The translations under genes and the position numbers were made by a program. From IMG/VR virus record IMGVR_UViG_3300042549_010585: a DNA stretch of 20,000 bases, one strand, 5' to 3'. This stretch comes from an uncultured virus (IMG/VR IMGVR_UViG_3300042549_010585) (Duplodnaviria > Heunggongvirae > Uroviricota > Caudoviricetes). Shown piece by piece: positions 1-19,280 of the stretch. Each line of letters starts with the position of its first letter. Within the stretch, counting starts at the first letter, position 1. A model generated the notes under the pieces. The model had not been told where the DNA came from, made no database searches, and saw only the letters and a list, made by a program, of their open reading frames with translations.

Positions 1-843
1 TGTGAACACAGTGTCTTCTTCATAAAATACATAACTTCCAGAATATACAGATGGTCCAGAAGCAGAAATTTTTGTCAAACTAACAGCTACGGGATTTGTG
101 ATTGTATCCAAACCATTTGGTAAATAAATTAATAACTTTACAGGCAAGTCACTCGAAAGTTCTTGACTACAAACTACCCTAAAATACATAGTTTTACTTT
201 TAGGGCCTTTACCTTGATCATAATAATATTGCTCTTCGTCAGTTAGGTCTTCGCCGTGGGCTGGAACTGTAGATATTACAGGAACGCCAAATCTAATAGG
301 CCTTGGATGAGTCCAGGCATGATCAAATATACCAATTGAAAATTCTGGGCCTCGACTTCCTATTGGAACAAATATATTTGAATCAATAGTTAATGGAGAA
401 AAATAATTCAAAGCCTGAAAGTCTTTATTTTCCTCAACTTGATATATTTCTATTCTTAAGTCTGGAGAAGATGTATTTAAGGTTAAAATATTTTTATTAA
501 ATGTTACAATTGTTCCATCTATAATATCTATTGCTATATTTAATTTGCCAAATTTTCCAATTGCTTTATTTTTTTGATAATTAAATGACTCGAAAGATTC
601 TAATTTTAAATTTATAGATCTTACTTTTGGAGATTCTTGGGTATATAAAATATTTAATTTATTATTTTCTGCATAGAGTGCTATATGAAAATTTTCTTCA
701 ATCTGATATGCAATTGCTTGCGATATGGCACCCAGGCATGAGTTAACTGGTGCATCAATTAATGTTAATTTTAATTTGTTTTTGCCAATAATAATATCAA
801 GATTGTTATCATTTAAATTTGATTGTATTTTTAAATTTTCCAT
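1..843 (-). CDS. Hypothetical protein, probably virion structural; 3' end runs off the window (>=281 aa)
   Basis: Not in the ORF track. Manual translation from ATG at 843-841 gives MENLKIQSNLNDNNLDIIIGKNKLKLTLIDAPVNSCLGAISQAIAYQIEENFHIALYAENN...FDHAWTHPRPIRFGVPVISTVPAHGEDL...SGSYVFYEEDTVFT, with no stop down to base 1. It starts 4 nt after the TAA of the upstream gene, suggesting coupling. Confidence 0.85.
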   Translation of the reverse strand, partial: MENLKIQSNLNDNNLDIIIGKNKLKLTLIDAPVNSCLGAISQAIAYQIEENFHIALYAENNKLNILYTQESPKVRSINLKLESFESFNYQKNKAIGKFGKLNIAIDIIDGTIVTFNKNILTLNTSSPDLRIEIYQVEENKDFQALNYFSPLTIDSNIFVPIGSRGPEFSIGIFDHAWTHPRPIRFGVPVISTVPAHGEDLTDEEQYYYDQGKGPKSKTMYFRVVCSQELSSDLPVKLLIYLPNGLDTITNPVAVSLTKISASGPSVYSGSYVFYEEDTVFT

Positions 844-847
844 ATAT

Positions 848-3800
848 TTACTCAGAAATTAAAATGTCTCCATTAGGTGTGAACTGCAAACCAACTGGAT
901 GAATAACCCCACTCCAGTCTGCCCTAACTCTTCCAGAAACATCATATTTAACCAGCCTGCTATTGGTGCCATTTGTTGCAACATCATCTAAAGCCACCCA
1001 GAAATACAAATTATCTGGATCTGGCAAGGCCCTGACGGCATCTGCGCCTACAGTTGTTATAGTAGCCAAAAGAGTATTATTTCCAGACGTGGTTTGATTT
1101 ATCAAAAGAACTTTGCCGTTAGTTGATGGACTCAAGGCAGGAGCTGCTACTAATAAATTTCTACTCGTTAAATCTAGTGGATCAGGCGTATACAAATATG
1201 CACTACCACCCTTGCCTTCTGTAAATTCTACAAATGTTTTCGAAATTGTTTTAGAATCTATAGTTTCTCCAAGATTACTGTAATTTTTGACTGAATTTTC
1301 ACCCACCATGGCTACTACCCAATTATTAGATTCTATAACTTGGATACTTATTGGCGAATAAATATTATCAAAAACTATTTCTCCAACAAATACAAGTATT
1401 TTTACTGGTGTTTCTGATTGAGGGCCTATCAAATCAGAATCAATTGCGCCATTTAAATTAAAATCTCCATTTACAGTAGCAGTTGTGCTTTCAGTTAATA
1501 ATCCAGTAAAAGATACAAATTCAGTCTGTGCATAACTTCCCGATCCTACAATTTCATAAAGCTTTGTATCTCCATCAATATATGATGGGAGATCTGTTCC
1601 ATCATTGTTGTCTGTAGATGTAGATTCGGTAGAATACGCCACTCCGTCGTTACCGTCAGATGTAATAAAGCCAGTTCCAATATTCAGGAATATATCGCTT
1701 GACCATGAGTCAATTTGAGTTTTTAAAGTTCCAGTAAACGTCACGACCAATGTTGCTGTTTTTTGTGTAGTGCTATTTAAAGGCGTTACTGGTGAGAATT
1801 TTTCAATTTTAACTTGGTTGACTGCAGGTCTCCCTGTGTTATCAAACCCTATGACCTGAACACCCGAAGACACGGATGCTTTTTTTAGTGCATCACTTGT
1901 GTTAGCAAAATTAATATATTGACTAAAAGATATCCACATCTTTCCAAGTCTTGGATTATATTGAGCCGTTAACGCCACTAAGTCTCTGTTGTTTCTTTTG
2001 AGTCTTAAGTTGCCTTGGATAGCCCTAACAAAATAACCGTCTTGATCTACCTCTACAACTCTATCGTTTGCTGTGTCAGCAAAAATATAATGATTATCAA
2101 CAGTCTGAAAAACATCTCTAGGGCTTTCAAGGCCTTTTCTAACACTATAGTTAAATGCTTGGACTGGTGTTGTATATAAATCAGACAATCCTATTAATAA
2201 ATTATTATTTTCTGTTGTGCCAAATCCATTAGAATAGTCGCCAAGCCCATCGTTCCATTTAATAAAATTAAAATAACCAACTTCACTTGTATCATTAAGC
2301 TGAATTCTGTTATTTGTAGGAGGATTTATTATATTAGTAAATGTCCTACCTGTTAAGAAGTCTGCATTGGTAGTCCAGACCTGAGGCGCTGCTGCTCCAG
2401 AAATACTAGTAAAGTGAAGTTGAATAGAATCAACTTCTGGAGAGGACAATCTGTCACTTGATGATGTAAGCAAAACAATTACATCTATATATCTGCCAGT
2501 ATTGTTTCTTGCATCTATTTCATATGTTGTTTGTGAAACATCATAGGGTAAAGCGCCATTAAGTGCTAGATGTGTGTCTTTTGTTCTAGTTTTAATAACA
2601 TAAGAACCATTATTACTAACTATATCCCAAGTAACTTTATTATATAAAGGAGGTGGAGTATTCCCATCGAATCTAAAGGTAAAGGTTCCAGATTGATTAT
2701 AATAAATATCATTCCAGGTAAATATACAGCCTTGTAAATCAGGGAAAATACCTTCTGCTGGCGCTCCGTTTTGTCTTACATAGCTAACTCTGTATGGAAG
2801 ATCTCCTGGATATGTCGTAGGTACGTTTAATTCTATTTTAAATTCAAAATCGTTGTTATAATAAAAACCAAAACCTACTACCTGCGCTCTGCTTGATGAA
2901 GCTATAAAACTATCCATGTTTACTTCAGTATAGTACTGAACGCCTGCGCTTGGCCTGGCCGCTGCATCATGTATCAACACAGCATCCGAAACATAAATAC
3001 CTTCACCCTCTAGAAAATTAACTGAAGTTCCTGTGCCATCACTCAAAATCAAATAAGCATAGATATTTGTAAATCCAGCCCTTGGATCGGCTGGGTTGTC
3101 TGGCAGATTTACAGTATAGCCTATTGCTAATTTATTTACTCCACTGTAATCTCTTGGGTCTCCACTAAATAAAGTATAAAGGTATTCAAATAAACTAATA
3201 TCTGAGTTTCCGTCTAGCGAACTTGATGCAAAGACATGGTTATAATACCAAGGACCGCCAGAACCTGTATTAATAGTTGAATCACTTATCTTGCTATAAG
3301 CATAAGGCTTAGACAAAGTAAAATAACTACTTGCTGTAGTTCCAAATATTTCAATATTTCTTGAAAAATAACTACTACCAACTTCGGCTGATGTATCAGT
3401 TGCGGCATAAGCAGTGCTAAAATCGGTATTAGTCGTCCAGACAACAAAATCAGATATGGCTGTTTGAGCTTCTCCACCAATGATTTGATGATTAGTTCTG
3501 TCAATGGTAGCTAGCGTCACATCCACTGGGACATAAGGTCTGGAAACGCCAGTTAAGCCCACCCCTGCCCATGTACTATACCAAGACACAAACGAGTCAT
3601 TTTCATTGTATCCTGGTAAATAAAGTATTGCATTAATTAAATTTTTATCTACATCACTCAAGCCTGATTGTTTTTTAAGTGCTATGGCCAATTGAAGCAT
3701 GTTGGCTATAAAAATATCTGACAATCTGGGCGCGCTTGAATCTTGCAGCTCTGCCAACAAAGAATCTATCTCACTATGGGTTAGTGTGCCTTTGTTGGAA

Positions 3801-4495
3801 AGCGTTTCGTGATCTATTTGGGGTATTCTTTCGGGCGCAAAAGTACCCGATGTAACAGTTGATGCATCTAAGTCAGAAAGAAACACTCCAGATAATTTAC
3901 CTTGGACATGAGCTCCTAAATCTATAGGGCTTGGATTTCTTGTTCCGCCAATATGCTTGTGAGCGTTTATTCTTGCATTTAAGGTTTCAAATAAGCTAAT
4001 TACTACTCTTCCATAGTCAGCTGTATTATAAACGGTATATGTAAAATTGGTACCATCATAATCAATTTCAACCGCACCGAGACCTATGTAATAATTTGGA
4101 TCATTGATTTCTGAAAGAGATGCAACAAAGTCGACTGTTGATAATTCTGGAGTTGTAGCGTTAGGAGTAGCATATATCCAATATGTGATAGGATAAACAC
4201 CACCAACCGGATATGACAATGTAACATTTATGTTACCAGTTGTCCTAGCATATTTCCAAGCTACATGACCTTCACCTGATGTAATATATACTGATAGTCC
4301 AGTTGTATCAGTTGGTGGTTGTATTAACCATGAAGCAGTATTTCCATCTTCTAAAACACCATTACCAAAGATAGTATATAGGTGCAAAAGATTATTTTCA
4401 ATGGCAAGAAAACGAATCTGATCCATATCTAGCATTTCGCCAGTACGATCTGAAGCCTCTAAATAACCAAATCCATAAATGTTCGTTTTCTTCAT
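848..4495 (-). CDS. Large tail-fibre/baseplate-associated protein with tail-fibre repeats and a C-terminal NHL-like beta-propeller (1215 aa)
   Basis: Long ORF. The N-terminal part has HxH (HKHIGG) and the tail-fibre-type motifs DLDASTVTSGTFAPERIP and DHETLSNKGTLTHSEIDSLL. The C-terminal part has NHL-like blades (ESPRDVFQTVDNHYIFADTANDRVVEVDQDG; YSPISIQVIESNNWVVA; HPVGLQFTPNGDILISE). It is T/S/N/G/Y-rich, typical of beta-strand structural proteins. Function is inferred from motifs. Confidence 0.7.
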   Translation of the reverse strand: MKKTNIYGFGYLEASDRTGEMLDMDQIRFLAIENNLLHLYTIFGNGVLEDGNTASWLIQPPTDTTGLSVYITSGEGHVAWKYARTTGNINVTLSYPVGGVYPITYWIYATPNATTPELSTVDFVASLSEINDPNYYIGLGAVEIDYDGTNFTYTVYNTADYGRVVISLFETLNARINAHKHIGGTRNPSPIDLGAHVQGKLSGVFLSDLDASTVTSGTFAPERIPQIDHETLSNKGTLTHSEIDSLLAELQDSSAPRLSDIFIANMLQLAIALKKQSGLSDVDKNLINAILYLPGYNENDSFVSWYSTWAGVGLTGVSRPYVPVDVTLATIDRTNHQIIGGEAQTAISDFVVWTTNTDFSTAYAATDTSAEVGSSYFSRNIEIFGTTASSYFTLSKPYAYSKISDSTINTGSGGPWYYNHVFASSSLDGNSDISLFEYLYTLFSGDPRDYSGVNKLAIGYTVNLPDNPADPRAGFTNIYAYLILSDGTGTSVNFLEGEGIYVSDAVLIHDAAARPSAGVQYYTEVNMDSFIASSSRAQVVGFGFYYNNDFEFKIELNVPTTYPGDLPYRVSYVRQNGAPAEGIFPDLQGCIFTWNDIYYNQSGTFTFRFDGNTPPPLYNKVTWDIVSNNGSYVIKTRTKDTHLALNGALPYDVSQTTYEIDARNNTGRYIDVIVLLTSSSDRLSSPEVDSIQLHFTSISGAAAPQVWTTNADFLTGRTFTNIINPPTNNRIQLNDTSEVGYFNFIKWNDGLGDYSNGFGTTENNNLLIGLSDLYTTPVQAFNYSVRKGLESPRDVFQTVDNHYIFADTANDRVVEVDQDGYFVRAIQGNLRLKRNNRDLVALTAQYNPRLGKMWISFSQYINFANTSDALKKASVSSGVQVIGFDNTGRPAVNQVKIEKFSPVTPLNSTTQKTATLVVTFTGTLKTQIDSWSSDIFLNIGTGFITSDGNDGVAYSTESTSTDNNDGTDLPSYIDGDTKLYEIVGSGSYAQTEFVSFTGLLTESTTATVNGDFNLNGAIDSDLIGPQSETPVKILVFVGEIVFDNIYSPISIQVIESNNWVVAMVGENSVKNYSNLGETIDSKTISKTFVEFTEGKGGSAYLYTPDPLDLTSRNLLVAAPALSPSTNGKVLLINQTTSGNNTLLATITTVGADAVRALPDPDNLYFWVALDDVATNGTNSRLVKYDVSGRVRADWSGVIHPVGLQFTPNGDILISE

Positions 4496-4508: not shown

Positions 4509-4730
4509 CTATGTTGTTTTTGGAGCATTCTCTGATGTAATGTCTTCCACGCCCCAAGTAGAAATACCCCATCTGAATACTTCAGTTGATTGCTTAATGT
4601 TATATTCTGTAGTAAGAGGCACATTTCCGACAAAAGTATTTGCAGCCGAGCCATCTGGCATTTTCGTATTTGGAACTGTTTTAGCAATTTGCGCTGCAAT
4701 TACCGAAGACAAAGATGTAAATCTAGGCAT
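4509..4730 (-). CDS. Small hypothetical protein, possibly baseplate/tail accessory (73 aa)
   Basis: ATG start with SD AAGGGG (4745-4740) 9 nt upstream. It fills the gap between two large genes on the same strand and carries a WGxxxWG motif (FRWGISTWG). Confidence 0.75.
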   Translation of the reverse strand: MPRFTSLSSVIAAQIAKTVPNTKMPDGSAANTFVGNVPLTTEYNIKQSTEVFRWGISTWGVEDITSENAPKTT

Positions 4731-4751: not shown

Positions 4752-7700
4752 TTATTCTCCAATAATGTCTGGAAATCTTTCACCATTAATACTTGCTCGG
4801 ATAATATTCTCACCAATATCGAAAGTATAATCTACATTTGCATAAATATAACTACCGGTTTGGTTATCAGACCCACCCTCAAATGATTTAACCATGAATG
4901 TGCCAGATGTATTAAGTGGCTTAGTCACAAATACGTTCAATTTTATAGCGGTAAATGTTTCCCTTGCAAACTTTTCGCGGAAACTAAATTGTTCTCTAGC
5001 TATAGCCTCATTTTGGAAGAAATTTGTCGTTTCATCAATGTCTAAATATTCTTTATGGTACCCAACATAGCCCAAAACAGGTTGGCTTTGATAACTACCA
5101 ATATCTGTATCAGCACTTGGATTTCTCACAAATTTATTCAATTTTTCCAAAGATGTTGAACTCAAAGCATTATTGATGCTTTTGGATGAAGACTCTTTAT
5201 AAAAAATTGATAAGTCGTGTAATTTTGTAGCCAATATGACTTTACTATGTAAGTTTGAAATCCTTGTTGTTTCTGTCCACCCTTGGGCTTCTACTATACC
5301 ATGTTCTCTATCAGGATTTGAGTTTGCAAGCTTAATAATTCCACTGGGGTCTGAATTATCACCAGCAAAAAACAAACTATCTTGTGGCTCGTCACTCCTA
5401 AGGCTTAACACATATCTGTGCTTTTCTGGATTCCAATAAAATACTGGCAAGCCTTGGTCTCTGCTAAATGGATCTCCTGGAGTGTAAAGCATTAAACTCA
5501 AAAGAGTTTTAACTACATCTTTAATTTTTTTAGACTTGTCAACTGTTAAGATATCTCTTGCTAAGCTTGTTGGAAAATTTAAGCCGAGCGCGCCGATAAC
5601 TTTATTAAAAAAGTTTTTATATAATGCATCATATGTACCGTCTGTTCTTTCTGGCCTTGGTTCATAAACTTTTGATAAGCCCGCAAAATAAAAACTATCT
5701 TCAAGCATTCTTTTAAAGTTTCTATTACTCATGGGATAAGCTGAAGTTGTATTAAATCTGATGTCTGAAAGCAAAGAGTCTCCTAAATCTTGACAGCTTA
5801 CAGTAACTGTAAAGCCATCTGGAGTTCTGTTTACAGTAACGTCTCTACCTATGCCTTGAAAATATGTATTTAATTTAGAGTCATAACCAGCTTTCAGTGT
5901 AAACACCAGTGTATTCTCCTGAATTGCATTTAAAATTTGTATACCAATTAAATCATTTGTCAAATTAGCAAAAATTAATTCAGCAGTTGCTTCTTGATAA
6001 GAATTATTTCTATTTGCACTTTTGTAGTTGATACTTACACGAGCTGAAGCCAAATAAGAAGACAAATCTGAATAATTACCCCAAATTGGACGAGTAATCA
6101 GATCTCTTTGGGCAGCTTCTGGAAAATTTCTAAAATAGAAGAATACAGGTCCTTCTATTGTTGTTTCATAATTAATTTGGCCTGTGACCAAAGATCTTTT
6201 ATTATCTGGAACAGTATTGTCTGTAACAACGCTATTTTCTTCATAACTAAATTCTGGAGTATCAAAATAATCTGAATCTGAAGCATTTCTTCTTCTCCAG
6301 TCACCATAGAATGTTGGAGAATCAGATTCTCCAGTACCTAATATATCTGTATATATTGGCTTTCTCTTTGTAATAAAACCTTGTTTAAGTTGAGTAGGAC
6401 TACAGGATCCTGTAAGGTACTCTTTTTCAGGTACATTGAAGTTAACAACAATTCTATTTCTGGCATCATTATTTGCTGGACTTATATAATCAGCATTAAA
6501 ATTATTAAAACATATTGGTGAATATGTAAAACTAGATGCTATATTTTTAAAATAAATTTCAATTATAGATTTTTCTGGAGTGTACGGCTCATAAATAGAA
6601 TCGTCGCTTGATTCTTCTGTAAGTTGGTCTACTTTAATAGGCTCAAATACATTCCAAGTAGATATATCTGGATCGAAACCAATATACATATTTGAACCAG
6701 CATAATGCACAAATATATCAACTTTATTTGATGATCCAAAGGTTGGGCCATTCAAATCTACTCTACCCCAGTTATTCAATATACTTTGTATTGTGTTACT
6801 TTGTGTGCCTGGTCTTTTATACCTTAAACTTGGAGCTTGATTTGCTGTAAAAACTATTACAAATTCAGTGATTCTTCTCTTGGCTGGCAATTCATTTTTA
6901 TAGCCCCAGTAAACTAAAAGTTGACTTGTTTCAGCCGAATCTTTGGTTACAACCCTTGAAGGATTTGTGATATCTAAATGTATCCAAAAACCACAATTTG
7001 GACCACCTTTAGCTTTGATATCTTCTGGTGGATTAATTATATTATTAACACTAGGATAATATAATTTACATTTGCCTTCGTCGGTATTATCATAGATAAA
7101 ATCATCAGCTATTGGAAATATTCTTCTTAATATACAGGGTTTCCCTTGAGCATGAACTGTAACCCTCGCACCATTTTGAGTTACATTTGTTCCAACAGAA
7201 TTTCCGCCTGCAGCTTTATAGTTAACAACACCAGTATTGAGCAAATAAGTTAATTTTGTTTGATCAACATTTTGCTGAGTCCAGATATTGTATGTTGATC
7301 TTTCTTTCAAAGATTCAAAAGGACCAACTTTAGCCATAGGGACAAATGGAAAAGAACCTGGAGGGTAAACAAAACTAACGCCTGTACCTGAGCTAATTGG
7401 TTGTGTGTTTTCCCTTAGTGTGTTCTCGTCTGACCCTTGAGGGACCGTATATGTTGTCTCTGGACTGAATTTAGAATAAATTCCACCTTTAAGCAAATTG
7501 AGAATTGGATGAGCTTTGCCAGGCACTATTGCACCCTCGGCAAATGTAGCAGCAGGAGCCCCAATTAATAAATTTAATTTAGGAATTAATCCACCTGCGC
7601 CGCTGGATAATGTTGCTATATTTGGAGAGTATTTATTTCTTTCAATTTGTTCATAAAAGGTAGCTGAAAGAGTATTTGAAGGATCTTTTTGTTGCTTACC

Positions 7701-7799
7701 TCTAGAGTATGCTCCAAAAATAGATCCTTGTTCAGGCAAATAAACAGCACTTACAGTACAATTGATATTAAGTTGTCTTGGCGAATTGTTAGAAGCCAC
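4752..7799 (-). CDS. Putative baseplate hub / tail-tip protein (Mu gp44 / P2 GpD / XkdQ-like C-terminal half) with a long N-terminal extension (1015 aa)
   Basis: GTG start with SD AAGGAG (7815-7810). From about aa 577: DLSSYLASARVSIN...ATAELIFANL...FTLKAGYDSKLNTYFQGIGRDVTVNRTPDGFTVTVSCQD...KIKDVVKTLL...FYWN...GSYIYANVDYTFD. This matches the 'l.aGY.....F.G....v......vtv.c.D' pattern and terminal 'G.Y....V.y.f' strand of hub proteins, recognised by eye. Confidence 0.6.
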   Translation of the reverse strand: MASNNSPRQLNINCTVSAVYLPEQGSIFGAYSRGKQQKDPSNTLSATFYEQIERNKYSPNIATLSSGAGGLIPKLNLLIGAPAATFAEGAIVPGKAHPILNLLKGGIYSKFSPETTYTVPQGSDENTLRENTQPISSGTGVSFVYPPGSFPFVPMAKVGPFESLKERSTYNIWTQQNVDQTKLTYLLNTGVVNYKAAGGNSVGTNVTQNGARVTVHAQGKPCILRRIFPIADDFIYDNTDEGKCKLYYPSVNNIINPPEDIKAKGGPNCGFWIHLDITNPSRVVTKDSAETSQLLVYWGYKNELPAKRRITEFVIVFTANQAPSLRYKRPGTQSNTIQSILNNWGRVDLNGPTFGSSNKVDIFVHYAGSNMYIGFDPDISTWNVFEPIKVDQLTEESSDDSIYEPYTPEKSIIEIYFKNIASSFTYSPICFNNFNADYISPANNDARNRIVVNFNVPEKEYLTGSCSPTQLKQGFITKRKPIYTDILGTGESDSPTFYGDWRRRNASDSDYFDTPEFSYEENSVVTDNTVPDNKRSLVTGQINYETTIEGPVFFYFRNFPEAAQRDLITRPIWGNYSDLSSYLASARVSINYKSANRNNSYQEATAELIFANLTNDLIGIQILNAIQENTLVFTLKAGYDSKLNTYFQGIGRDVTVNRTPDGFTVTVSCQDLGDSLLSDIRFNTTSAYPMSNRNFKRMLEDSFYFAGLSKVYEPRPERTDGTYDALYKNFFNKVIGALGLNFPTSLARDILTVDKSKKIKDVVKTLLSLMLYTPGDPFSRDQGLPVFYWNPEKHRYVLSLRSDEPQDSLFFAGDNSDPSGIIKLANSNPDREHGIVEAQGWTETTRISNLHSKVILATKLHDLSIFYKESSSKSINNALSSTSLEKLNKFVRNPSADTDIGSYQSQPVLGYVGYHKEYLDIDETTNFFQNEAIAREQFSFREKFARETFTAIKLNVFVTKPLNTSGTFMVKSFEGGSDNQTGSYIYANVDYTFDIGENIIRASINGERFPDIIGE

Positions 7800-7866
7800 T
7801 TTTTATTTACTCCTTCTTTTAACTTTTCGAGCCTAATAACCTGAGGCCCTTTAACAATACAAGTTA

Positions 7867-8409
7867 TTAATTTTTAGGAGCTAATATCATGATCATAGAT
7901 TTACCATCAAGAACAGGATGTTTTTCAACTGTTGAAATATCGGAAACTGATGCGACCAATCTATTTAAAATATTTTCAGCATATTCAGGATAGGTGATTT
8001 CTCTGCCTTTGAATTTAATTAAAACTTTAACTTTATCGCCGTGCTTTAAAAACTTAATTGCACTATTAAGCTTTACATTGAAATCGTGATCTTCAATCAT
8101 AATGCCAAGCGTAAGAGTTTTCATGTCAACCTGCTTTGCTGCTGCCTGGTGTTCTCTTAGCTTTTTAGATAGTTGATATTTATATTTACCATAATCTAAA
8201 ATTTTACAAACTGGTGGTGTGGCATGTGGTGCGATTTCAATCAAATCCAAATTCATGCTCTTGGCCATCTCCAAGGCCTTGACAGCCGCTACTATACCCT
8301 GCTGTTCGCCATCTTCACCCACTAACCTAACTTCTCTAGCTCTAGGCAAATCATTAAAAAATTTAAGGATTTGATCATTGACTCTTGGCAACAAATTATT
8401 TTCTGACAT
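7867..8409 (-). CDS. infC: Translation initiation factor IF-3 (orphan, probably phage-encoded; 180 aa)
   Basis: Hallmark IF-3 motifs: RVNDQI..RAREVRLVGEDGEQQGIV, ALEMAKSMNLDLIEIAPHATPPVCKILDYGKYKY, IEDHDFNVKL...FLKHGDKVKVLIKFKGRE, PVLDGKSMIMILAP. ATG start with SD AAGGA (8420-8416) 6 nt upstream; double TAA stop. Confidence 0.97.
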   Translation of the reverse strand: MSENNLLPRVNDQILKFFNDLPRAREVRLVGEDGEQQGIVAAVKALEMAKSMNLDLIEIAPHATPPVCKILDYGKYKYQLSKKLREHQAAAKQVDMKTLTLGIMIEDHDFNVKLNSAIKFLKHGDKVKVLIKFKGREITYPEYAENILNRLVASVSDISTVEKHPVLDGKSMIMILAPKN

Positions 8410-8415
8410 TTATAT

Positions 8416-8449
8416 TCCTTTTAATATAATTATAATAAATTGTACACTA
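8416..8449 (-). promoter_or_regulatory. SD sequence and possible internal promoter -10 box for infC
   Basis: The minus strand reads TAGTGTACAATTTATTATAATTATATTAAAAGGA. It has TATAAT (8434-8429), TACAAT (8444-8439) and SD AAGGA. There is no convincing -35 box and the region is very AT-rich, so the promoter is weakly supported. Confidence 0.3.
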
Positions 8450-11400
8450 TTACGAAACTTTTAATCTTTCTGAAACACTACCTGAGTTAAATAATTTTCT
8501 CACCATAATATCAGATTCATTATCATTGGTAATTTTATAATATACAAACATTTCACTATCATGATCTGGGTTTTTACTCACAAAGAAACCTACAGACTGC
8601 CTATGAATGTCTACTTCTACAGCACCATCTTGATCCACAGCTAAATATCCTGAACTTACAAGAGTTTGAAGATATGGGTGTGCAGGATTATCAGAAGCTG
8701 TAAAATCTCTGTTTCCAGCAACTAAATAAATATTATTTACCATATATCGATCATAAAAATCTTTATATTGTATCTTTGCTACAAATATTTTTCCAGCACA
8801 CCAAAATGCACAATATGTTAGATCCAAAGGTTTATAATAGCACAATACCGGGCAATATACAGCAGTTTCATTTGAAGCAGTGCTAGAGAAACCCATGTCA
8901 ATAACTGCAAATGCAGTTGTTATTTCTTCGGCGCCAGATGTATAAACTTTGGCTGTAATCTGATTTGGAGTGCCCTCTAAAACATACGCCATAGTCAAAA
9001 ACCCATTTTTATCTATACTTATGCTAGGCCTTGTTTCAATAACTGTTGCTCCACTCAAATATTTTGTGTACTCCACATATTCGCCTGTAAAGTCTATAGT
9101 GGTAGCAATATCAGTCGGACCATCTACCAAATAATTATAACCTGGAGCCAATGTGCCATCAATACTTGCATCGTAGGGATTTAACACTCGGAGCATTAAA
9201 GCACCTGGGCTTACAATTCCAACTACATAAATATTTTTGTCCAAAGGCCAGAACCTAACATCTGGTTTGGTAATTTTAAATGTAATTTGTCTAAGTACAT
9301 TTGCAAAACTATCATCAGTAAGATTATAATTTGGTCCAATCCAGTAATCTAATGTACCCGCATCTGAATTCAAAGATAAATTTATTTTACTTCCATCAGT
9401 ATCTTGAGTTTCTGTAGCCAAACCTAATATATCTCCAATTTGGCCTGATTCATCTGCGCTTAGGTGAAATAGGATTGGATCTTCACCAGATAATATTTTT
9501 CTAGATCCATTAGATTGACCAGCTATTAACCCAGAATACATTGGTGTATTCATAGGATCATTTAATTTAATATATCTTATTGGAGTTGAAACATCTGAGC
9601 CATCCTCCTGAACGCCATTTGATACAATATGAGTACTTATTTCAAGTTCATCTTCGATTGCTTTAACTGTGTCTTCTGTAGCTATCGTAACTGAGTCATC
9701 TAATACAGTTCTTATCTTCAGTGCGGCTGGGAATGTAGAATTAAAAGCAAATCCGCCAATAACACTTACTTCTATTCCCTGTGGTAACTTAACAAACCAC
9801 GTTGGAGAATATAAAGCGCCCATGATCATAAATTCTTTGCCATTAGCAATTAATTGTGCCTTCAGGGTTTCTGCATCTGCGAAGAACCAAAATTGCTGCG
9901 AGTCTAAAGAACTACTAGGTACCAAATCTAAATCTTCATAGAATCTAGTAGATCCTGTAAACCCACCAGCATCAACTATATTTAATTTTGTCAGACCAGA
10001 TGTGCCAGGCGTTGCCGAAGTAACTGTTAAATAAAAATTTTTAATTCTTGTGCCAATTGGATTGCCATTTAGTGCAGCTCTAATGTTCGCAAGTTCTGCA
10101 TCTGTTAAAATTTGATTATTTGATGATCTTGGATATGCAATGATTCTAAAAATAAGCTGTGTATCAGTACCTGTTATAAAATATGGCTGATTAATTGTTG
10201 CAGAATATGATAAATAAGCTAGATTCGCATTAGATGCATGGCTAGGTGTGAGATAAGGAGATGTAAATACTCTTTCGGTTACTATGCCATATCTATCAAC
10301 AAAAAATGCCATCAATTTATATGTTGCCGGAATTCTTAAGCTGTCTAAATTATAATCAAGTTGAAAACTTACATTCCAAGTGCTTGCATTTACTCTTCCG
10401 TCTTGAAATGTAGAACTATTAGTGGAGAACTCTGCATAGTAACTCACTGATTTGTCATCAAAAAGTGACCATGATGGATACTCAAGACACAAAAGTGGTT
10501 CTGGGGGCGCATAATTACCTGGCCCACTTTCGAGTGACAGTAATCCAACACGAGAGTCTCCTGTTGGATTAATATTAGAATCTATAAGAGTAAACTTATT
10601 ATTATATGGGATATAACTTGAGCCAATACCTATGACTCCTCCCTCGTAATAATTTCTCGTAATTCTTAAAGAGTTTGAGGCATCTGTATTAAAATGAACA
10701 TAATTTGTTCTGTTAAATAAATAATATCTTGATGCACTCAGAGAATCAGGTGTATTTTGTAATATACTTGTTTCCAAGCTGGTAGTAACAGGATCTAATT
10801 CTAGCTCTATGGTTGGAGGGTTCAGGTTTTGTGCAAAATTATTTGCACTTGTTGCATTCTGTGGGTATGAGAAAGTATAGACACCAACTACTACTTTAGT
10901 CGTTGGTGAAGCAAAAATACTTTGATAAATATTGTTTACAGATTCTCCTATCAAACCATCTGCAAATCTCAAGATTTCATAACTATTTAAATCCTGAGTC
11001 AGTGGTGGAGAAACAATCAAATTTTCTAAACTAGAAGGCGATCCTATGCTTAATTTTATGGATGGCTTTGGATCACTTATATTGGTTGGATCAGTATCAT
11101 ATTTTTCAAAAATTATTTCTGTATTAGAGTTCCTATATTGATGAGGATTATTATAATTTATAACTTCTTCGCCAGGGTGGAACCAAAATCTTAAAAATAT
11201 ATGTGTATTAGTTTGATTGCTTGAGTCATTAGATCTTGCTTTAAAATTAAATTTCCATTGGCCTTTTCTAAACAAAATGCTAGAACCAAGCAAATCATCA
11301 GTCAAATCAACTGTAAAGTAAGCTAAAGGATCTAAGCTCAAAGGATCAAAGTTAAAAGGATCTTCATTTTCAAGCAAAGAAACACTTCTAACTAAATTAG

Positions 11401-13114
11401 TAATTTCTGCATTAGACACCCCCGTGGTTTCTAATAACAAAGATGACTTTTCAGAATATATTTGACCTTTAAAAGCAGATGAAAATTCTGTAACAGCCGT
11501 GTTTAAGTCTGTTTGCCCAATTCTATACCAAGAGTTGACATTGCCAGAAGAATCATAATATAGCCATGGAGCTATAAAAGCATCGCCTAGATTGGGAGGA
11601 TTAGATGTATTTTCTAAAAAATATAAATCTTGCCAACTTGATGTAGCTGTAGGTTCAGTTGTAGAATTAATTTTTTGTATTAAAATACTTGAGTTTGTGT
11701 TTAAATTAATATTATTAATTCTTACAAGCCTACCGCCAATCGAACTTCCCGAAATTGGAGTTCCTGTAAGATAATAAATAACAGATTTTTTGCCTAAAGT
11801 CGGTCCAACAAATACAACCCAATAATCATTTGCGCTAATCGAACCACCTAATGTAATTCCATTAAATGAATAAATTGGAAAACTGGGTACAAAAAATCTT
11901 AAATCTATAGCGTGTGCAAATCCTCTAGCCTTGATTGTATCTTCTGGATGGAATGCTTTGACATAAAATGTTGGATTGTTGTTGTCATTTGGATAATAAT
12001 CATTGAATCCAGGAATTGATTTTCCACAATTAATATTAAATGCATAAGCAAGTATTCTGCAGGGTAATTGAGTGTTGCTAATATTGACACGGGGATTTGA
12101 TAAAACACGAAACAACATAACTTTCTTTAATGAAAATTTTATTGATGGCCCGTCTACATAAAAAGCTTGTATTCTAAGTTTGCTTATGTCCCTAAAGTCA
12201 CTAGAGCCATAATCAAAATGTACGGTTATAGTTTTTGTTGTTGAGTCACTATCAGAATTGCCATTATAATATCCTGTTGCTAGTATAGGAGTTGTATTTA
12301 TGGTAATATTTACTACTGTATTTTCTGGCTGTTGTGATTTGAATTTAATTGTATTATTTAAATAATTAGCACTGTATAAATCGGGCGAAATTGCAATAAA
12401 ATCCTCATCAGGTAAAGCTCTGTAAACCTGAATAGTATCTTCTTGATCCCAATTAACAGAACTTGTGTAAGTAGTTCTGTCTGTTGTGGTGGTAGAAGCA
12501 TTCAAAACAGATGATGGAAATGAAGTTGCGGTATCTTCTGTGTCAGTGCTTTGATATAATTTTATTTTACCAAATATATATTTGGCCCAATCTATGTTTA
12601 CATTATTGCTTGCACCAGTCTGATAAGCCAATAAATTATTATAATCATCAGCCGCCCCATACACTGCAGATTCATTTAATATAGTAAGTAAGTTTGGATC
12701 ATTTATATTTACAAGCAATGAATATTCAAAAGTTATTGCACTTAAATTTGTAGCTATAGTGGAAAAATCAGCTTGCCACCAATAAGTATTACTTTTGATC
12801 CAAAATATTTTATCTGGTACGGGTGGAACTAAAGGGGTTGGATTTTGCTTCCTTCTAAATGCAATATTGACAGGCCATTCTGGCTTGCCATAATAACTTA
12901 CTCCAGTCCCAGAATTATTAGACGGTATTAGAGTGTAGTTTGTTGAAACAGAAGAGCTAATAAAATAATCATTCCTGAAAGAGCCTCTTTCATGAACCAG
13001 GTCTAACCAACCCAATCCTGCGGTAGATCCAGCAGTTGGAATATAAGATGGTACCCAATTGTATTTACCTGAATAGGGTTTTTTATCAGGATTAACATAA
13101 CCGTCGTCAGGCAT
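8450..13114 (-). CDS. Large beta-rich virion structural protein, probably baseplate/tail (1554 aa)
   Basis: Long ORF rich in S/T/N/Y/F. It contains a phage-structural-type module (NWDQEDTIQVYR...DLYSANYLNNTIKFKSQQPENTVVNITI) and propeller-like C-terminal blades (RPSISIDKNGFLTMAY; CPVLCYYKPLDLTYCAFW). ATG lies 6 nt after the upstream TGA with no SD, suggesting coupling. Confidence 0.6.
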   Translation of the reverse strand: MPDDGYVNPDKKPYSGKYNWVPSYIPTAGSTAGLGWLDLVHERGSFRNDYFISSSVSTNYTLIPSNNSGTGVSYYGKPEWPVNIAFRRKQNPTPLVPPVPDKIFWIKSNTYWWQADFSTIATNLSAITFEYSLLVNINDPNLLTILNESAVYGAADDYNNLLAYQTGASNNVNIDWAKYIFGKIKLYQSTDTEDTATSFPSSVLNASTTTTDRTTYTSSVNWDQEDTIQVYRALPDEDFIAISPDLYSANYLNNTIKFKSQQPENTVVNITINTTPILATGYYNGNSDSDSTTKTITVHFDYGSSDFRDISKLRIQAFYVDGPSIKFSLKKVMLFRVLSNPRVNISNTQLPCRILAYAFNINCGKSIPGFNDYYPNDNNNPTFYVKAFHPEDTIKARGFAHAIDLRFFVPSFPIYSFNGITLGGSISANDYWVVFVGPTLGKKSVIYYLTGTPISGSSIGGRLVRINNINLNTNSSILIQKINSTTEPTATSSWQDLYFLENTSNPPNLGDAFIAPWLYYDSSGNVNSWYRIGQTDLNTAVTEFSSAFKGQIYSEKSSLLLETTGVSNAEITNLVRSVSLLENEDPFNFDPLSLDPLAYFTVDLTDDLLGSSILFRKGQWKFNFKARSNDSSNQTNTHIFLRFWFHPGEEVINYNNPHQYRNSNTEIIFEKYDTDPTNISDPKPSIKLSIGSPSSLENLIVSPPLTQDLNSYEILRFADGLIGESVNNIYQSIFASPTTKVVVGVYTFSYPQNATSANNFAQNLNPPTIELELDPVTTSLETSILQNTPDSLSASRYYLFNRTNYVHFNTDASNSLRITRNYYEGGVIGIGSSYIPYNNKFTLIDSNINPTGDSRVGLLSLESGPGNYAPPEPLLCLEYPSWSLFDDKSVSYYAEFSTNSSTFQDGRVNASTWNVSFQLDYNLDSLRIPATYKLMAFFVDRYGIVTERVFTSPYLTPSHASNANLAYLSYSATINQPYFITGTDTQLIFRIIAYPRSSNNQILTDAELANIRAALNGNPIGTRIKNFYLTVTSATPGTSGLTKLNIVDAGGFTGSTRFYEDLDLVPSSSLDSQQFWFFADAETLKAQLIANGKEFMIMGALYSPTWFVKLPQGIEVSVIGGFAFNSTFPAALKIRTVLDDSVTIATEDTVKAIEDELEISTHIVSNGVQEDGSDVSTPIRYIKLNDPMNTPMYSGLIAGQSNGSRKILSGEDPILFHLSADESGQIGDILGLATETQDTDGSKINLSLNSDAGTLDYWIGPNYNLTDDSFANVLRQITFKITKPDVRFWPLDKNIYVVGIVSPGALMLRVLNPYDASIDGTLAPGYNYLVDGPTDIATTIDFTGEYVEYTKYLSGATVIETRPSISIDKNGFLTMAYVLEGTPNQITAKVYTSGAEEITTAFAVIDMGFSSTASNETAVYCPVLCYYKPLDLTYCAFWCAGKIFVAKIQYKDFYDRYMVNNIYLVAGNRDFTASDNPAHPYLQTLVSSGYLAVDQDGAVEVDIHRQSVGFFVSKNPDHDSEMFVYYKITNDNESDIMVRKLFNSGSVSERLKVS

Positions 13115-13120
13115 TTTTTA

Positions 13121-16100
13121 TCAGCTATTCAACATGTCTATATACATGTCTTCAATCATCCTTCTGTAAATTATTCTCATCTTCTGCTCATGGTCTAATT
13201 GCATCTGTTTAAATTCATACTTAAGTTCTCGTTCAATTCGTTGCCTTAATAAGAATTCGTCTATTTCCTGGCCACCAGCAACAGTTTGATTATTCTGAAT
13301 CATTTGAATAATTCTCGTTGCATCAATGATAATTTCTTCTTTATCTTTTCCGCTATCAACCAACGATCTTACAACTTGTGAAATAGGATCGTTTGGAGAT
13401 TGCGTTGTTGAGGCTTGAGGATTGGTTGTAAGAACATCAATTAACTGTCTTTGGATCTGCTCTTCTGATCTTCTTAAGGCAGCTTTATTTTGCTCTCTTT
13501 CTTCAGATAATGCTTCTTGGAATCTTTCTCTTTCTTTTACCAGTTCCCTATAGAACATAGTTTCACTATCTGCACTTAATTCCGAAGCTTGATTTTCAGC
13601 GTTTTCTTTGATAATGATATTTTCTTCAAGTGCTTTATTTAATTGCTGCTGAATATCATGCTCTGCCTTTCTCAAAGCAATTTTATTCTGTTCCTGTTCT
13701 GAAATTGTTAAGTTCTGGAATCTATCTCTTTCCCCTACCAGCCCTCTGTATATATTTGACTCTTCGTCGCTAGGCAAAGACTCGATAGGTGGATCATTTG
13801 ATGTTTGTAAAAATTTTGGTTCTAGACTTGAGCCAACTGGCAAATACCTTAGATTTCTTCTTTTTCTTCTACGCTTTCTTAGATCTTCTTGATAATCTTC
13901 ATCTAGCGCTTCTCTTACACCCGTAATTCTTGGGTATCTATTGATAACATTATCTTCATCACCAAATTGATAATCGTCTGGTTGTAAGCCGTCTTCATTT
14001 AAATCTTCAAATTTTGAGTTTTGTAATTGTTCTTGTTGATCTGGTATTGTATATTCTGGAATAGAAACTGTTTTTTCATTATTACCAAAGACTTTATTTA
14101 AAGTTAAAGACACTTTTTGCTTTAAATTATTTGATTCTTCAAATTGTCTTTGAGCTTGTTCTTGGCTTCTATTAACTGGTCTATCTTGTTTGTTTCTAGT
14201 GAATAACTTAGCAAATCCTCTGGGCTCTGATTTATCCTGTATAGGCTGGCCACCTGATAAAACATTACCCGATAAAACAGAGTTTGATACAGAATCATCT
14301 TGTTGACTTTGTGTTATTGAATCTTTTTGAACCTGAATTTCTTGTTTTACATTTATTACTCGTGATTTAGATTCTTCATCAAGTTTTTTAAATTCATCTG
14401 AATTTAAAAATTCTTCCAAAAGCTCTTCGTTAGATATAGTTCTAGAGCCTTTGTATTCATAGAAATCATTAGGCATGTCTGTGTCTAAATTAAATTTAGA
14501 TGTATCAGTTGTACCTCCAGCAGAATATGTATTACCTACTTGAACATAATCTAATTGTCCATTCTGTTGGTCTGCTTTGCCAATTATATCATTTGATAAA
14601 TATTGATTGCTATCAGAGTTAGATGTATTTTGCTGCCCCATTGATGAACTTAAAACTCTAGACGTAGCAATTCCTTGAGTTATAAAATCATCACTTGCTG
14701 GTACATCTTCATTGTATATACCATCTGTACCTCTGTTTGATACATTTGAATTAATTGCATTGTCTGCTGAACTACCATCGTCCGACCCAACTGTTCTAGT
14801 TTGATAAACTCTAACACCATTATCTGATGGAATCTGCTCACCGGATGGCTGTACGGGCAAAACTGTTTGTGCTGCTGTTTGTACTGCTGTTTGTACTGCT
14901 GTTTTATTATCGACCTGAGTCGTATTTGAACCATCTGGACCTACAGACTGATAAATAGCGCCTGTTTGAGATTGATTTTTAACTTGATTATTTTCAATTA
15001 ATTCTGATGGACTAGATCCCAAATTATTATTTAAATTAGTTTCTGAAACTTGCTGGTATTCATCAGCCTGATTTTTATTTAAACTTTGAGAATCTACTCC
15101 AGAATTAAATATAGTCGAATCTGTAAGTTTTTGATTTTCAGAAAAAACTCCACCATCGGATTCTGCAAAACTATTATTTTTGCTTTCGCCTGACAAGTTT
15201 GATTCTTGAAGTTTGCCAGGCGAGCTTGATTGTTGATCAAAATTTTCAAATGCTGCATTGCCACTTGATAAATTCCCTGGTTGATCTAATCTGCTAACCG
15301 AGATTGCTTCTGGCAATTTTTGATATTCTGCACTTTGACCTGATGCATTACCAAATTGAATATTTTCATTTTCAATAATACCCGAAGATTCACTATCTCG
15401 GAGTGGAGTATTAGTGCTAAATGTTTCCACAGATCCATTCAAAGGTCTATTTTGTGTTATTGGCAATCCATTTTGATCTAACTCAAATGATTGACTTATA
15501 ATAACTCCATCTGGAGTATAACCAAGTGGAGCATTTTGGCTTATAGGCCGACCATCTTGTGATAACCCAAATGGCGTAGAATTGGGAAGTTCTGCATTTC
15601 TGCTTGTAGATTCTTGGCTGTTTGATAAAGAATTATTAAAGCTTGTGCCTTGGTCGTTTACTGAATTATTATTTATAAAATTTTGGTTAGAACTAAAGCC
15701 CTCGTTTGTATCTGGCAAGGGTTTGTTTCCAGAAACATTTGAAAATTCTTGATCTGATCCAGCCAGTGTTCTAAACCTGGTAACTTCGGGGCCTGTATCT
15801 TGATCTTGATTAAAATTTCTACTTTCAAGTGCTGGTGTATTATCAAACACCACTGACTTTTGGCCATTTATTTGATCTACTGTGAGGAATGATCTCTGGT
15901 TTTCTAGAGGTTTATTTTCACTCTTTGGCAAATCTGCAGACACACTCGTGTCTGCTTTTCCTAAATTAGCTTTATTGTCCTCTGTGACTAATTTAACTTG
16001 GTCTGGTAAAGCTGCATTACCAGTTGTTTCAATTGGCTCTGTATTAGATTGAGGAAGTTTCTGGAATGTAGAATCTGATTCTATGTTATCTGAAGCTATT

Positions 16101-16366
16101 GATAAAGCGGAAGGCTTAACAACTGCCTTGAAGGGAGTGAGTGTAGTTCCACCGCTTGTTAATTCTACACTATATGTGCCTTTCTTAAGCTTTACTAAAC
16201 CTAAAGGCAATGACCCATCAGAACTTACGTTCCCAGAAAATGTTTCAACTAATGTTCCATCTCTGTAAAATTTAGCCGAGAATGAATCACCTAGCTGAGT
16301 TAAATCTTCTCCAGTAAGTACTACGCTTGAGCCTTCTGTAAACTCAACATCTGGAGAACGCTGCAA
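13121..16366 (-). CDS. Low-complexity S/N/Q/D/E-rich protein with an N-terminal Ig-like domain and C-terminal coiled coils; probably the -1-frame continuation of the 217-aa ORF
   Basis: 1081 codons from a TTG with no usable SD. The frame stays open upstream to a TAA at 16492-16490 and overlaps the end of the 217-aa ORF. The true start is uncertain (see frameshift finding). Confidence 0.85.
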   Translation of the reverse strand: MQRSPDVEFTEGSSVVLTGEDLTQLGDSFSAKFYRDGTLVETFSGNVSSDGSLPLGLVKLKKGTYSVELTSGGTTLTPFKAVVKPSALSIASDNIESDSTFQKLPQSNTEPIETTGNAALPDQVKLVTEDNKANLGKADTSVSADLPKSENKPLENQRSFLTVDQINGQKSVVFDNTPALESRNFNQDQDTGPEVTRFRTLAGSDQEFSNVSGNKPLPDTNEGFSSNQNFINNNSVNDQGTSFNNSLSNSQESTSRNAELPNSTPFGLSQDGRPISQNAPLGYTPDGVIISQSFELDQNGLPITQNRPLNGSVETFSTNTPLRDSESSGIIENENIQFGNASGQSAEYQKLPEAISVSRLDQPGNLSSGNAAFENFDQQSSSPGKLQESNLSGESKNNSFAESDGGVFSENQKLTDSTIFNSGVDSQSLNKNQADEYQQVSETNLNNNLGSSPSELIENNQVKNQSQTGAIYQSVGPDGSNTTQVDNKTAVQTAVQTAAQTVLPVQPSGEQIPSDNGVRVYQTRTVGSDDGSSADNAINSNVSNRGTDGIYNEDVPASDDFITQGIATSRVLSSSMGQQNTSNSDSNQYLSNDIIGKADQQNGQLDYVQVGNTYSAGGTTDTSKFNLDTDMPNDFYEYKGSRTISNEELLEEFLNSDEFKKLDEESKSRVINVKQEIQVQKDSITQSQQDDSVSNSVLSGNVLSGGQPIQDKSEPRGFAKLFTRNKQDRPVNRSQEQAQRQFEESNNLKQKVSLTLNKVFGNNEKTVSIPEYTIPDQQEQLQNSKFEDLNEDGLQPDDYQFGDEDNVINRYPRITGVREALDEDYQEDLRKRRRKRRNLRYLPVGSSLEPKFLQTSNDPPIESLPSDEESNIYRGLVGERDRFQNLTISEQEQNKIALRKAEHDIQQQLNKALEENIIIKENAENQASELSADSETMFYRELVKERERFQEALSEEREQNKAALRRSEEQIQRQLIDVLTTNPQASTTQSPNDPISQVVRSLVDSGKDKEEIIIDATRIIQMIQNNQTVAGGQEIDEFLLRQRIERELKYEFKQMQLDHEQKMRIIYRRMIEDMYIDMLNS
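13442..13750 (-). repeat. Internal duplication of a 37-aa coiled-coil segment (66-aa spacing)
   Basis: YRGLVGERDRFQNLTISEQEQNKIALRKAEHDIQQQL (~13750-13640) versus YRELVKERERFQEALSEEREQNKAALRRSEEQIQRQL (~13552-13442). Confidence 0.85.
14863..14904. repeat. 12-bp tandem repeat, ~3.5 copies, encoding TAVQ-TAVQ-TAAQ-T
   Basis: The + strand reads ctgtttgtgctg ctgtttgtactg ctgtttgtactg ctgttt. Confidence 0.9.
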
Positions 16367-16368
16367 TT

Positions 16369-16420
16369 TCTGAACAATTTGCTCTTTTTCAGAATTGTTC
16401 AGATTGTAATCTTTTTTTTT
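16369..16420 (-). promoter_or_regulatory. Candidate programmed -1 frameshift signal: A9G slippery run plus 3' stem-loop
   Basis: The minus strand reads GTA AAA AAA AAG ATTACAA TCTGAACAATT CTGAAAAAGAGCA AATTGTTCAGA. Heptamer A_AAA_AAG at 16417-16411, 7-nt spacer, perfect 11-bp stem (16403-16393 with 16379-16369), 13-nt loop. Confidence 0.7.
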
Positions 16421-17052: not shown

Positions 17053-17067
17053 TTAATTCACGTTAAA

Positions 17068-17104
17068 ATAATTTGAACCACTATTAGGTAGTGGTTCAAA
17101 TTAT
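17068..17104. terminator. Perfect 16-bp inverted repeat (terminator-, operator- or processing-site-like hairpin)
   Basis: ataatttgaaccacta (17068-17083), ttagg, tagtggttcaaattat (17089-17104). On the minus strand the 3' arm ends ...AAATTATTTT. It is intergenic, 10 nt after the stop of the 710-aa gene. The repeat is certain; the terminator function is inferred. Confidence 0.6.
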
Positions 17105-19247: not shown

Positions 19248-19280
19248 TGTTATGTTCCCTGTTAAATTATTTTTAAAAAA

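Follow-up and report, generated by a model that had tools for sequence, protein, structure and literature searches.

The 20,000-nt window analysed here, taken from the uncultured Caudoviricetes record IMGVR_UViG_3300042549_010585 of IMG/VR, belongs to a freshwater jumbo phage with a contractile-tail-type baseplate and carries a complete gene for translation initiation factor 3 (IF-3), placed between a giant, presumed tail gene and the gene of the baseplate hub. What is new is that this position within the baseplate module is fixed throughout a clade of related phages, and that the IF-3 of the clade carries sequence changes of its own. Our explanation is that an ancestor would have captured a bacterial infC once, inserted between the giant tail gene and the hub gene, and that the gene would then have been inherited vertically at that junction. 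Its product would be an IF-3 binding the host 30S subunit, as the two domains, the basic linker and the initiator-tRNA elbow residues retained in its sequence suggest; it would be produced along with the late virion proteins, free of AUU-type self-repression, and would maintain a supply of 30S subunits competent for initiation, as well as accurate start selection, while very large structural proteins are made late. The descriptive part of this explanation we regard as nearly certain. Overall, a working 30S-binding IF-3 that is co-expressed with the late genes and sustains or biases initiation is somewhat better supported than not, and the role given to it stands at about even chances; the timing of expression, the binding to 30S and the physiological role are what we infer from the evidence below.

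The central features are as follows (window genes encoding 1,554, 1,215, 281 and 73 aa are called g1554, g1215, g281 and g73):

8450..13114, minus strand: g1554, 1,554-aa protein, presumed tail/baseplate component by context, no family match
8410..8449, minus strand: 40-nt spacer 5' of IF-3, with AAAGGA as ribosome-binding site and, at about 8425–8445, a -10-like element (GTAC..TATAAT)
7867..8409, minus strand: IF-3 gene, 180 aa plus stop, ATG start, TAA stop; N-terminal domain, Lys-rich linker helix, C-terminal domain
7800..7866, minus strand: 67-nt spacer from IF-3 to the hub gene, with an AAGGAG ribosome-binding site for the hub GTG start; terminator unconvincing
4752..7799, minus strand: baseplate central hub protein, 1,015 aa (gp27 / Mu gp44 / VgrG-like fold by AlphaFold2 and Foldseek)

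The first-pass annotation had recognised a full two-domain IF-3 at 7867–8409, and profile searches bear it out: Pfam IF3_N (PF05198) matches residues 23–86 with 97.3 bits, IF3_C (PF00707) matches residues 95–179 with 103.1 bits, and over the whole protein the NCBIfam infC equivalog TIGR00168 scores 183 bits against a cut-off of 60. In PHROGs the protein matches phrog_9787, “translation initiation factor” (1.2e-44), and it aligns over its full length with solved IF-3 chains, best with 5me0_Y (E 2.7e-48) and also with the 180-aa chain 8jsg_A (2.8e-40). The gaps given in the annotation are exact, 40 nt (8410–8449) to the 1,554-aa ORF (open reading frame) and 67 nt (7800–7866) to the 1,015-aa ORF, and its description of a co-directional orphan IF-3 also stands: all 10 large ORFs in the ORF list of the window lie densely packed on the minus strand, and the next gene is the hub gene. 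Cellular infC is typically found in an infC-rpmI-rplT operon, often after thrS. No match to the rpmI, rplT or thrS families occurs among the 10 window ORFs scanned (Pfam, NCBIfam), nor can these genes adjoin IF-3, because the hub gene begins only 67 nt downstream. The remaining nine window proteins have no Pfam, PHROG or NCBIfam family match (a sub-threshold FANCL_d1 row at 0.0091 was dismissed as noise), and no tRNA genes were found within the window. The GC content of IF-3 is 0.348 against 0.338 and 0.341 in its flanks, with a somewhat higher GC at third codon positions (0.29 vs 0.21).

The downstream gene had been labelled hub-like, correctly. A large protein collection holds 46 relatives of its product, on contigs up to 168 kb, and 20 of them make up alignment A1, from which an AlphaFold model was built (predicted local distance difference test score, pLDDT, 69.9; predicted template modelling score 0.49). 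Searched against the PDB with Foldseek, this model gave 76 matches at E ≤ 1e-3, nearly all of them baseplate hub or spike proteins: the top ones are AlgoCIS (7aef_q, 8.8e-12) and Mu gp44 (1wru, 3e-11; template modelling (TM) score to target 0.63), followed among others by VgrG1, T4 gp27 (1k28_D, 2.9e-8) and the pyocin R2 hub. The predicted structure is thus a baseplate hub fold of the gp27/Mu gp44/VgrG type, which it shares with the hubs of type VI secretion systems (T6SS) and extracellular contractile injection systems (eCIS), with target-normalised TM scores of 0.55–0.63 for gp27 and gp44; compared with gp44 and gp27 the protein is about three times longer, has extra domains and is 8–12% identical in sequence. 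A homologue from a more distant locus (L004, in clade B, below) has a weak match to phrog_196, “baseplate hub” (5.9e-5).

Direct comparison with known phages gave little to work with: against 50,697 phage records neither megablast of the window nor tblastn of g1554 and the 1,015-aa hub found a match, and the hub as a single-protein query found none in IMG/VR, where an alignment query was needed. With A1 as the query, 11 loci were recovered on IMG/VR viral contigs of 21–358 kb together with 45 metagenome loci, and no relative was found in 185,579 prokaryote species represented by one genome each. The block hub-g73-g1215-g281 recurs across the IMG/VR contigs and metagenome loci. Its largest carrier, G001, is a 358-kb IMG/VR relative (CheckV 89% complete; 394 ORFs, 95% coding, nine tRNA genes) with hub, g73, g1215 and g281 in the same order as in the window. 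A PHROG scan of 149 of its 394 ORFs (the first 149 of the 178 that measure 180–900 aa and are each contained in a single 20-kb piece) identified a major head protein (phrog_2522, 4.8e-68), a portal (1.4e-28), TerL (phrog_2, 9.6e-29) and a prohead protease, as well as UvsX, clamp loaders, ribonucleotide reductase and rIIB. The window’s exact IF-3 protein is present on 82 contigs, the longest of 188 kb, and near-identical proteins lie on contigs up to 201 kb, the larger clade-A contigs with this IF-3 measuring 168–204 kb; these lengths, with the head, portal and terminase of the 358-kb relative, are the grounds for assigning the element to a jumbo phage. The annotation’s view that this is a phage IF-3 and not a cellular infC is likewise upheld, by the hub fold, the block on viral contigs and the lack of hub relatives in the species genomes. 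G001 also encodes three sigma-factor-like proteins, GroEL and several DNA methyltransferases, and a sugar-modification island with at least six nucleotide-sugar epimerase paralogues, an aminotransferase and a FabG-like reductase.

The junction itself was followed by tblastn of all ten window proteins against 58 loci. The loci fall into two groups by hub identity. Clade A (L014–L031) comprises 18 loci with hubs at least 35% identical to that of the window, one of which (L019) has no upstream flank; in all 17 others, a count that includes L014, probably the window’s own contig, IF-3 stands directly upstream of the hub at 57–100% identity (in L029 as its C-terminal end only, at the locus edge). 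Synteny in related phages therefore agrees with the layout in the window. The 8.4-kb stretch was also recovered across DNA runs, with at least half of the sampled words present in 19 runs from 15 studies of lake water, freshwater and subsurface; two of these runs may be the window’s source sample, and in one subsurface run the contig depth is about 200-fold. Because 17/17 related metagenome loci that keep the flank share the g1554-IF-3-hub junction and 19 DNA runs contain half or more of the sampled words, the assembly chimera that the first-pass annotation had considered is ruled out.

Clade B, 38 loci with hubs 23–28% identical, keeps hub-g73-g1215-g281, and IF-3 occurs within the flanks of none of the 38; TIGR00168 likewise finds nothing in the five IMG/VR relatives searched whole. 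In 32 of the 35 flanked clade-B loci the ORF that ends just upstream of the hub stays open as far as the edge of the locus, reaching 3,312 aa; L040 has one of 2,488 aa and L004 one of 1,172 aa, and that of L009 (1–9942) contains 11 PKD repeats and RCC1 repeats. The pre-hub gene of clade B encodes a giant protein, above 3,300 aa in length (3,479 aa for G001, 345791–356230), that looks like an adhesin or fibre. The exception is L003, an IMG/VR contig in which a gene for a 781-aa CCA-adding tRNA nucleotidyltransferase (7490–9835; phrog_2244, 1e-62; domains PolyA_pol, HD and tRNA_NucTran2_2) lies exactly between a g1554 homologue and the hub. In a hub tree of 26 rows (IQ-TREE quick, LG+G4) the eight IF-3-bearing rows form one clade (Shimodaira–Hasegawa-like approximate likelihood ratio test, SH-aLRT, 100) with L003 as its sister, a placement made less sure by the long branch and odd composition of L003, and the other 17 rows lie beyond a branch with support of 100. 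The simplest reading of these sequences is a single gain of IF-3 by the ancestor of clade A, at a junction occupied in the sister lineage by another translation enzyme.

The history of the gene after its capture can be read from its relatives. The first 31 of 3,626 IF-3 relatives are environmental proteins of 52–94% identity; cellular IF-3s follow at ≤53%, including Paenibacillus, Clostridia and Capsulimonas, and of 593 relatives in the species genomes the 80 best have 41–50% identity and are spread over several phyla. We built an IF-3 tree of 76 rows (IQ-TREE quick, LG+C20) from 17 clade-A proteins, nine IF-3s of other phages, every second one of the 80 genome loci (40 in all) and 10 named proteins. 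L014–L016 were omitted as copies of the window sequence, L025, L026 and L030 as near-duplicates, and L029 as a partial sequence. The clade-A proteins are monophyletic (SH-aLRT 100, stem length 0.59) and separate from the nine IF-3s of other phages, and they join Bacillota, Chloroflexota, Armatimonadota and Pseudomonadota at a polytomy that the tree does not resolve. Inference of a donor or host from this tree was rejected, given the polytomy and the search-biased sampling of cellular sequences. The order in which the IF-3s diverge mirrors that of the hubs, as vertical descent would predict, and the number of nonsynonymous changes per site (dN) relative to the window was compared with that of both neighbours at four depths:

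L017: IF-3 0.067, g1554 0.103, hub 0.127
L021: IF-3 0.195, g1554 0.295, hub 0.322
L022: IF-3 0.247, g1554 0.555, hub 0.543
L023: IF-3 0.324, g1554 0.672, hub 0.622

At every depth the value for IF-3 is below both of its neighbours, at about half of theirs. By these sequence comparisons the gene is under strong purifying selection, long retained and acquired independently of the other phage IF-3s.

Two side observations may be added. A DNA contig of a related strain from run X3 matches up to window position 8413 and then diverges, and an RNA-library contig from run X20 stops at 8410; the two breaks coincide with the start of IF-3, next to the far more variable g1554, and look like a mosaic or divergence boundary. 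An IF-3 on a 916-bp metagenome contig (P0078) has an N-terminal stretch of 73 residues identical to the clade-A subgroup of P0063 and a divergent C-terminal half resembling other IF-3s, and is either a recombinant or an assembly chimera.

The protein combines ordinary IF-3 features with a few that set the clade apart, one of them an insertion near the N-terminus:

8344..8367, minus strand: clade-specific 8-aa insertion, residues 15–22 (LKFFNDLP), between PRxN[DE]QI and RAREVRL

The insertion, with the clade-A consensus L[KR][FY]FN[DN]LP, is present in 17/17 clade-A rows and in none of 50 cellular rows; of the nine other phage rows eight are fully gapped there and the ninth is gapped at seven of the eight positions. 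In and next to it, R9, N11, Q13, I14, L15, N19, L21 and P22 are invariant in clade A. In the AlphaFold2 model of IF-3 (mean pLDDT 79.1) both domains and the linker helix of residues 73–90 are confident, and residues 1–22 have a pLDDT below 50. An N-terminus that is invariant and modelled with such low confidence fits a candidate short binding motif. Elsewhere the protein looks cellular: the linker net charge of +3.9 equals the mean of the 50 cellular rows, and the domain charges are likewise cellular-like. Y78, D109 and R136, the equivalents of E. coli Y75, D106 and R133, which we take to be among the functional positions of IF-3, are invariant in 17/17 clade-A rows, as are R28, Q36 and K69, the equivalents of R25, Q33 and R66. 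In E. coli IF-3, R25, Q33 and R66 contact the elbow of the initiator tRNA and affect discrimination of start codon and tRNA (PMC9723500). Taken with the loss of two C-terminal-domain arginines (below), the insertion suggests, as far as sequence can indicate it, that the interaction with the ribosome has been retuned.

Signals around the gene bear on when and how it may be expressed. In the 16 clade-A loci examined the IF-3 start codon is ATG in 10 and TTG in six, and an AAGGA-type ribosome-binding site stands 5–8 nt upstream in 16/16. A TATAAT-like hexamer lies 15–25 nt upstream in most clade-A loci, often after GTAC, and is degenerate in L021 and L022; as a sigma-70 scan of the window performed at chance (94 found vs 84 ± 8.8 expected), we do not claim this -10-like element as a promoter. 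No terminator-like site was called in the IF-3-hub spacer, where the hairpin is insignificant (fold z-score -1.22), and read-through into the hub gene is therefore expected. IF-3 represses its own synthesis through a non-canonical (AUU-type) start, which many cellular infC genes use. Among 80 cellular infC loci 26 have no ATG, GTG or TTG in the open frame before the core and must therefore use a non-canonical start, consistent with such autorepression; a phage infC with a canonical start would, by inference from its sequence, escape it. Because the start is canonical, the Shine-Dalgarno sequence good and the spacer before the hub free of a terminator, we propose both co-production with the late virion genes and escape from self-repression. 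Expression itself receives weak support from the freshwater metatranscriptome X20 (share 0.14), in which 39 RNA-library contigs, possibly derived from DNA carry-over, fall into 24 of the 30 bins of the window. A 474-nt contig among them spans 7937–8410, nearly the whole IF-3 ORF, with 16 differences; the six bins without a contig carry no information on expression.

The rest of the module lies on the same strand:

4509..4730, minus strand: g73, 73 aa, directly after the hub in all relatives, no family match
848..4495, minus strand: g1215, 1,215 aa, NHL-type repeat, presumed baseplate/fibre component, conserved
1..843, minus strand: g281, N-terminal 281 aa of a protein of ~320–340 aa, conserved after g1215
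13121..20000, minus strand: upstream co-directional genes for 1,081-aa, 217-aa and 710-aa proteins and the C-terminal 239 aa of a ~369-aa protein

Identity of g73 across clade-A and clade-B loci ranges from 28 to 100%. Searched against PDB profiles, g1215 matches an NHL repeat (9.3e-7, profile positions ~800–836) and g281 has no match; g1215 also has no usable match in the Atlas. Homologues of g1554, 30–84% identical, occupy the same position in clade A and L003, and no match to g1554 was found in Pfam, PHROGs, NCBIfam, the phage database, the PDB profile search or the Atlas. Upstream, the 1,081-aa protein (13121–16366, minus strand) is of low complexity over a long middle section rich in Ser, Asn and Gln, and its C-terminal part is a repeated coiled coil with two similar “YRxLVxERxRFQ...” segments; it has no family match and could be a tape-measure or internal protein. 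The incomplete last ORF (19281–20000) encodes 239 aa matching the C-terminal part of a 369-aa protein of G001 at 47% identity, and its family is the best-conserved protein common to the window and clade B. Before the 217-aa gene, a 62-nt spacer (17053–17114, minus strand) contains TATAAT, then a hairpin of 10 perfect base pairs (TTGAACCACT...AGTGGTTCAA) and a T-rich run; it may be a terminator/promoter boundary inside the module and is not listed by the scan tool.

Set beside bacterial IF-3, the window protein has the same two-domain architecture, 180-aa length and basic linker, and aligns over its full length at 50% identity to the family of the best solved chain. It differs in being phage-encoded, outside infC-rpmI-rplT, with an ATG or TTG start in clade A, and in carrying eight inserted residues ahead of the first N-terminal-domain strand and Gly/Asn in place of R99/R112. 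A phage-borne IF-3 is in itself no novelty, which the first-pass annotation had overstated by implication: huge phages carry IF1 and IF3 (PMC7162821), IF-3 occurs in “a few group 2.2 jumbo phages”, e.g. Atu_ph07 (PMC7824862), and E. coli phage Sharanji carries an IF-3 whose function is stated to be unknown (PMC11895373); the family also has its own PHROG. The other jumbo and huge phage IF-3s of phrog_9787 (Agrobacterium Atu_ph07, Sinorhizobium Phosso, Erwinia Hallingskeid, LR7565xx) are likewise full-length and come from genomes above 200 kb, but have a separate origin in the tree, are 31–39% identical to the window IF-3, and in all nine cases lack the full insertion. Their surroundings differ too, being small non-structural genes: in Atu_ph07 and Phosso these encode a Clp-type ATPase and a topoisomerase; in Hallingskeid a helicase, a protease and a topoisomerase, with “virion structural protein” coding sequences interspersed within 6 kb; and at six metagenomic phage loci a peptide deformylase, a dCMP deaminase, a CCA enzyme, acyl carrier proteins, rIIA/B and a methyltransferase. 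The gene of the window, by contrast, lies between giant tail genes, directly before the hub. The best “phage” IF-3 matches in the databases, at 50% identity in unannotated Listeria, Enterococcus and Staphylococcus phage records, look host-type and were left unused; the top matches as a whole (43–50% identity), which also include human faecal “Bacteriophage sp.” and some records of only 2–7 kb, may be host DNA in phage preparations. A limited open-access literature search, with huge-phage supplementary tables outside it, found no paper on an IF-3 inside a tail or baseplate module or on the insertion.

The closest parallel is bS21, and the first-pass annotation was right to invoke it: according to Chen et al. 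(2022; PMC9723584), phage bS21 is co-located with structural genes, fixed beside TerL, portal, protease and major capsid protein in freshwater Bacteroidetes phages and expressed with them. In both systems a component of translation initiation is lodged among conserved structural genes of large freshwater phages, and for bS21 the paper proposes a service to late-stage protein production. They differ in that bS21 is a ribosomal protein with head and packaging neighbours on the opposite strand, and the window IF-3 a factor with co-directional baseplate neighbours; by the same source the expression of bS21 was seen by RNA mapping, and the window system is known mainly from sequence.

Several points weigh against our explanation. 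At the position of E. coli R99 all 17 clade-A rows have Gly (G102), where 44 of 50 cellular rows have Arg, and at that of R112 all 17 have Asn, Ile or Thr (residue 115; Asn in the window), where 44 of 50 have Arg or Lys. Both arginines presumably contribute to 30S binding in E. coli IF-3; if they matter for it here, the ordinary activity of the factor could, judging from sequence, be weakened or altered. Head and packaging genes (capsid, portal and terminase) are known from the distant relative G001 (hub 25% identical), the record scanned with PHROGs, rather than from a clade-A contig; the Pfam terminase models PF17289 and PF03237 have no match in G001–G005, where the PHROG models matched. The placement of IF-3 among structural genes, as annotated, holds by context for g1554, which no search assigns to a recognisable family, and g1215, g73 and g281 are presumed structural on the same contextual grounds. 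Phylogeny yields the single phage clade apart from cellular IF-3s, but names no donor or host, with cellular rows that contain neither Bacteroidota nor Cyanobacteria. Synonymous divergence is saturated in all pairs, even the closest usable one, making dN/dS rough and unreliable. Late expression, finally, which the annotation had proposed, is suggested by the terminator-free spacer and the RNA-library contigs; the latter carry no strand, timing or transcript-end information and may stem from DNA carry-over.

The lost arginines lead to a different account of the same protein, in which it binds the host 30S with changed behaviour, as a retuned or antagonistic factor, rather than simply adding IF-3 activity; it might give preference to phage mRNAs, shut out host or leaderless ones, take the place of the host IF-3, or serve as a decoy for a host defence aimed at initiation. 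We consider this unlikely, while recognising what speaks for it: the invariant insertion in a conserved, predicted-disordered N-terminal tail, the two missing arginines, the long stem branch (0.59) and a canonical start that would release the gene from IF-3 feedback. The other functional positions tested, the linker charge and both domain folds are ordinary, however; no partner or target is known, and the expected effects of the substitutions rest on E. coli mutagenesis. The fixed position immediately upstream of a hub/spike gene, together with the CCA-adding enzyme of the sister lineage in the same slot, could also mean that IF-3 travels in the virion, packaged or fixed close to the hub, and enters the cell along with the DNA to work from the very start of infection, an idea raised for phage bS21 in PMC9723584. 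Gene position alone does not demonstrate packaging, however, and the protein has no signal, fusion or domain that ties it to a structural protein, so that we find virion cargo improbable. A broader proposal joins these two: the g1554-hub junction would be a dedicated cargo slot for translation genes, filled by IF-3 in clade A and by the CCA-adding enzyme in its sister, and a remodelled IF-3 would reprogramme the host 30S to late phage messages or enter with the virion, rather than merely topping up the host factor. This we regard as unlikely.

Two further accounts would take the phage, or the function, out of the picture, and we give both very little credence. One is that the contig is bacterial, an eCIS, a T6SS-like cluster or a prophage remnant with the cell’s own or a second infC: hub folds of this kind do occur in eCIS and T6SS, the top Foldseek match is AlgoCIS, and the window itself has no capsid or terminase match in Pfam or PHROGs. 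Yet none of 185,579 species genomes has a relative of the hub; their IF-3s are at most 50% identical among the best 80 of 593 relatives; the conserved block lies within a 358-kb record with head, portal and terminase; rpmI and rplT are not beside IF-3; and the dense one-stranded coding with giant ORFs resembles jumbo phage tail modules. The other is a recently captured host gene that has no role for the phage or is decaying, in keeping with the mostly sporadic IF-3 matches in phage databases and the lack of IF-3 in clade B. Here the ORF is intact in 17/17 loci whose hubs range down to 35% identity, dN is about half the value of the flanking genes, GC is ameliorated and the key residues are invariant, all of which is hard to reconcile with a neutral passenger.

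We return, then, to an IF-3 captured once, kept in the late module and probably acting on the host 30S. Initiation factors of phages have been listed in huge-phage surveys, none with a demonstrated role, and this lineage amounts to a natural experiment on one of them: a single capture, a fixed position in the late module, stronger conservation than that of the flanking genes, and a few clade-specific changes that can be mutated, in a phage that is widespread in lake and subsurface metagenomes. Together with the analogous case of bS21 it suggests that freshwater jumbo phages put components of initiation under late-gene control; if this is true, such control would bear on how phages secure ribosomes for the production of very large virion proteins.

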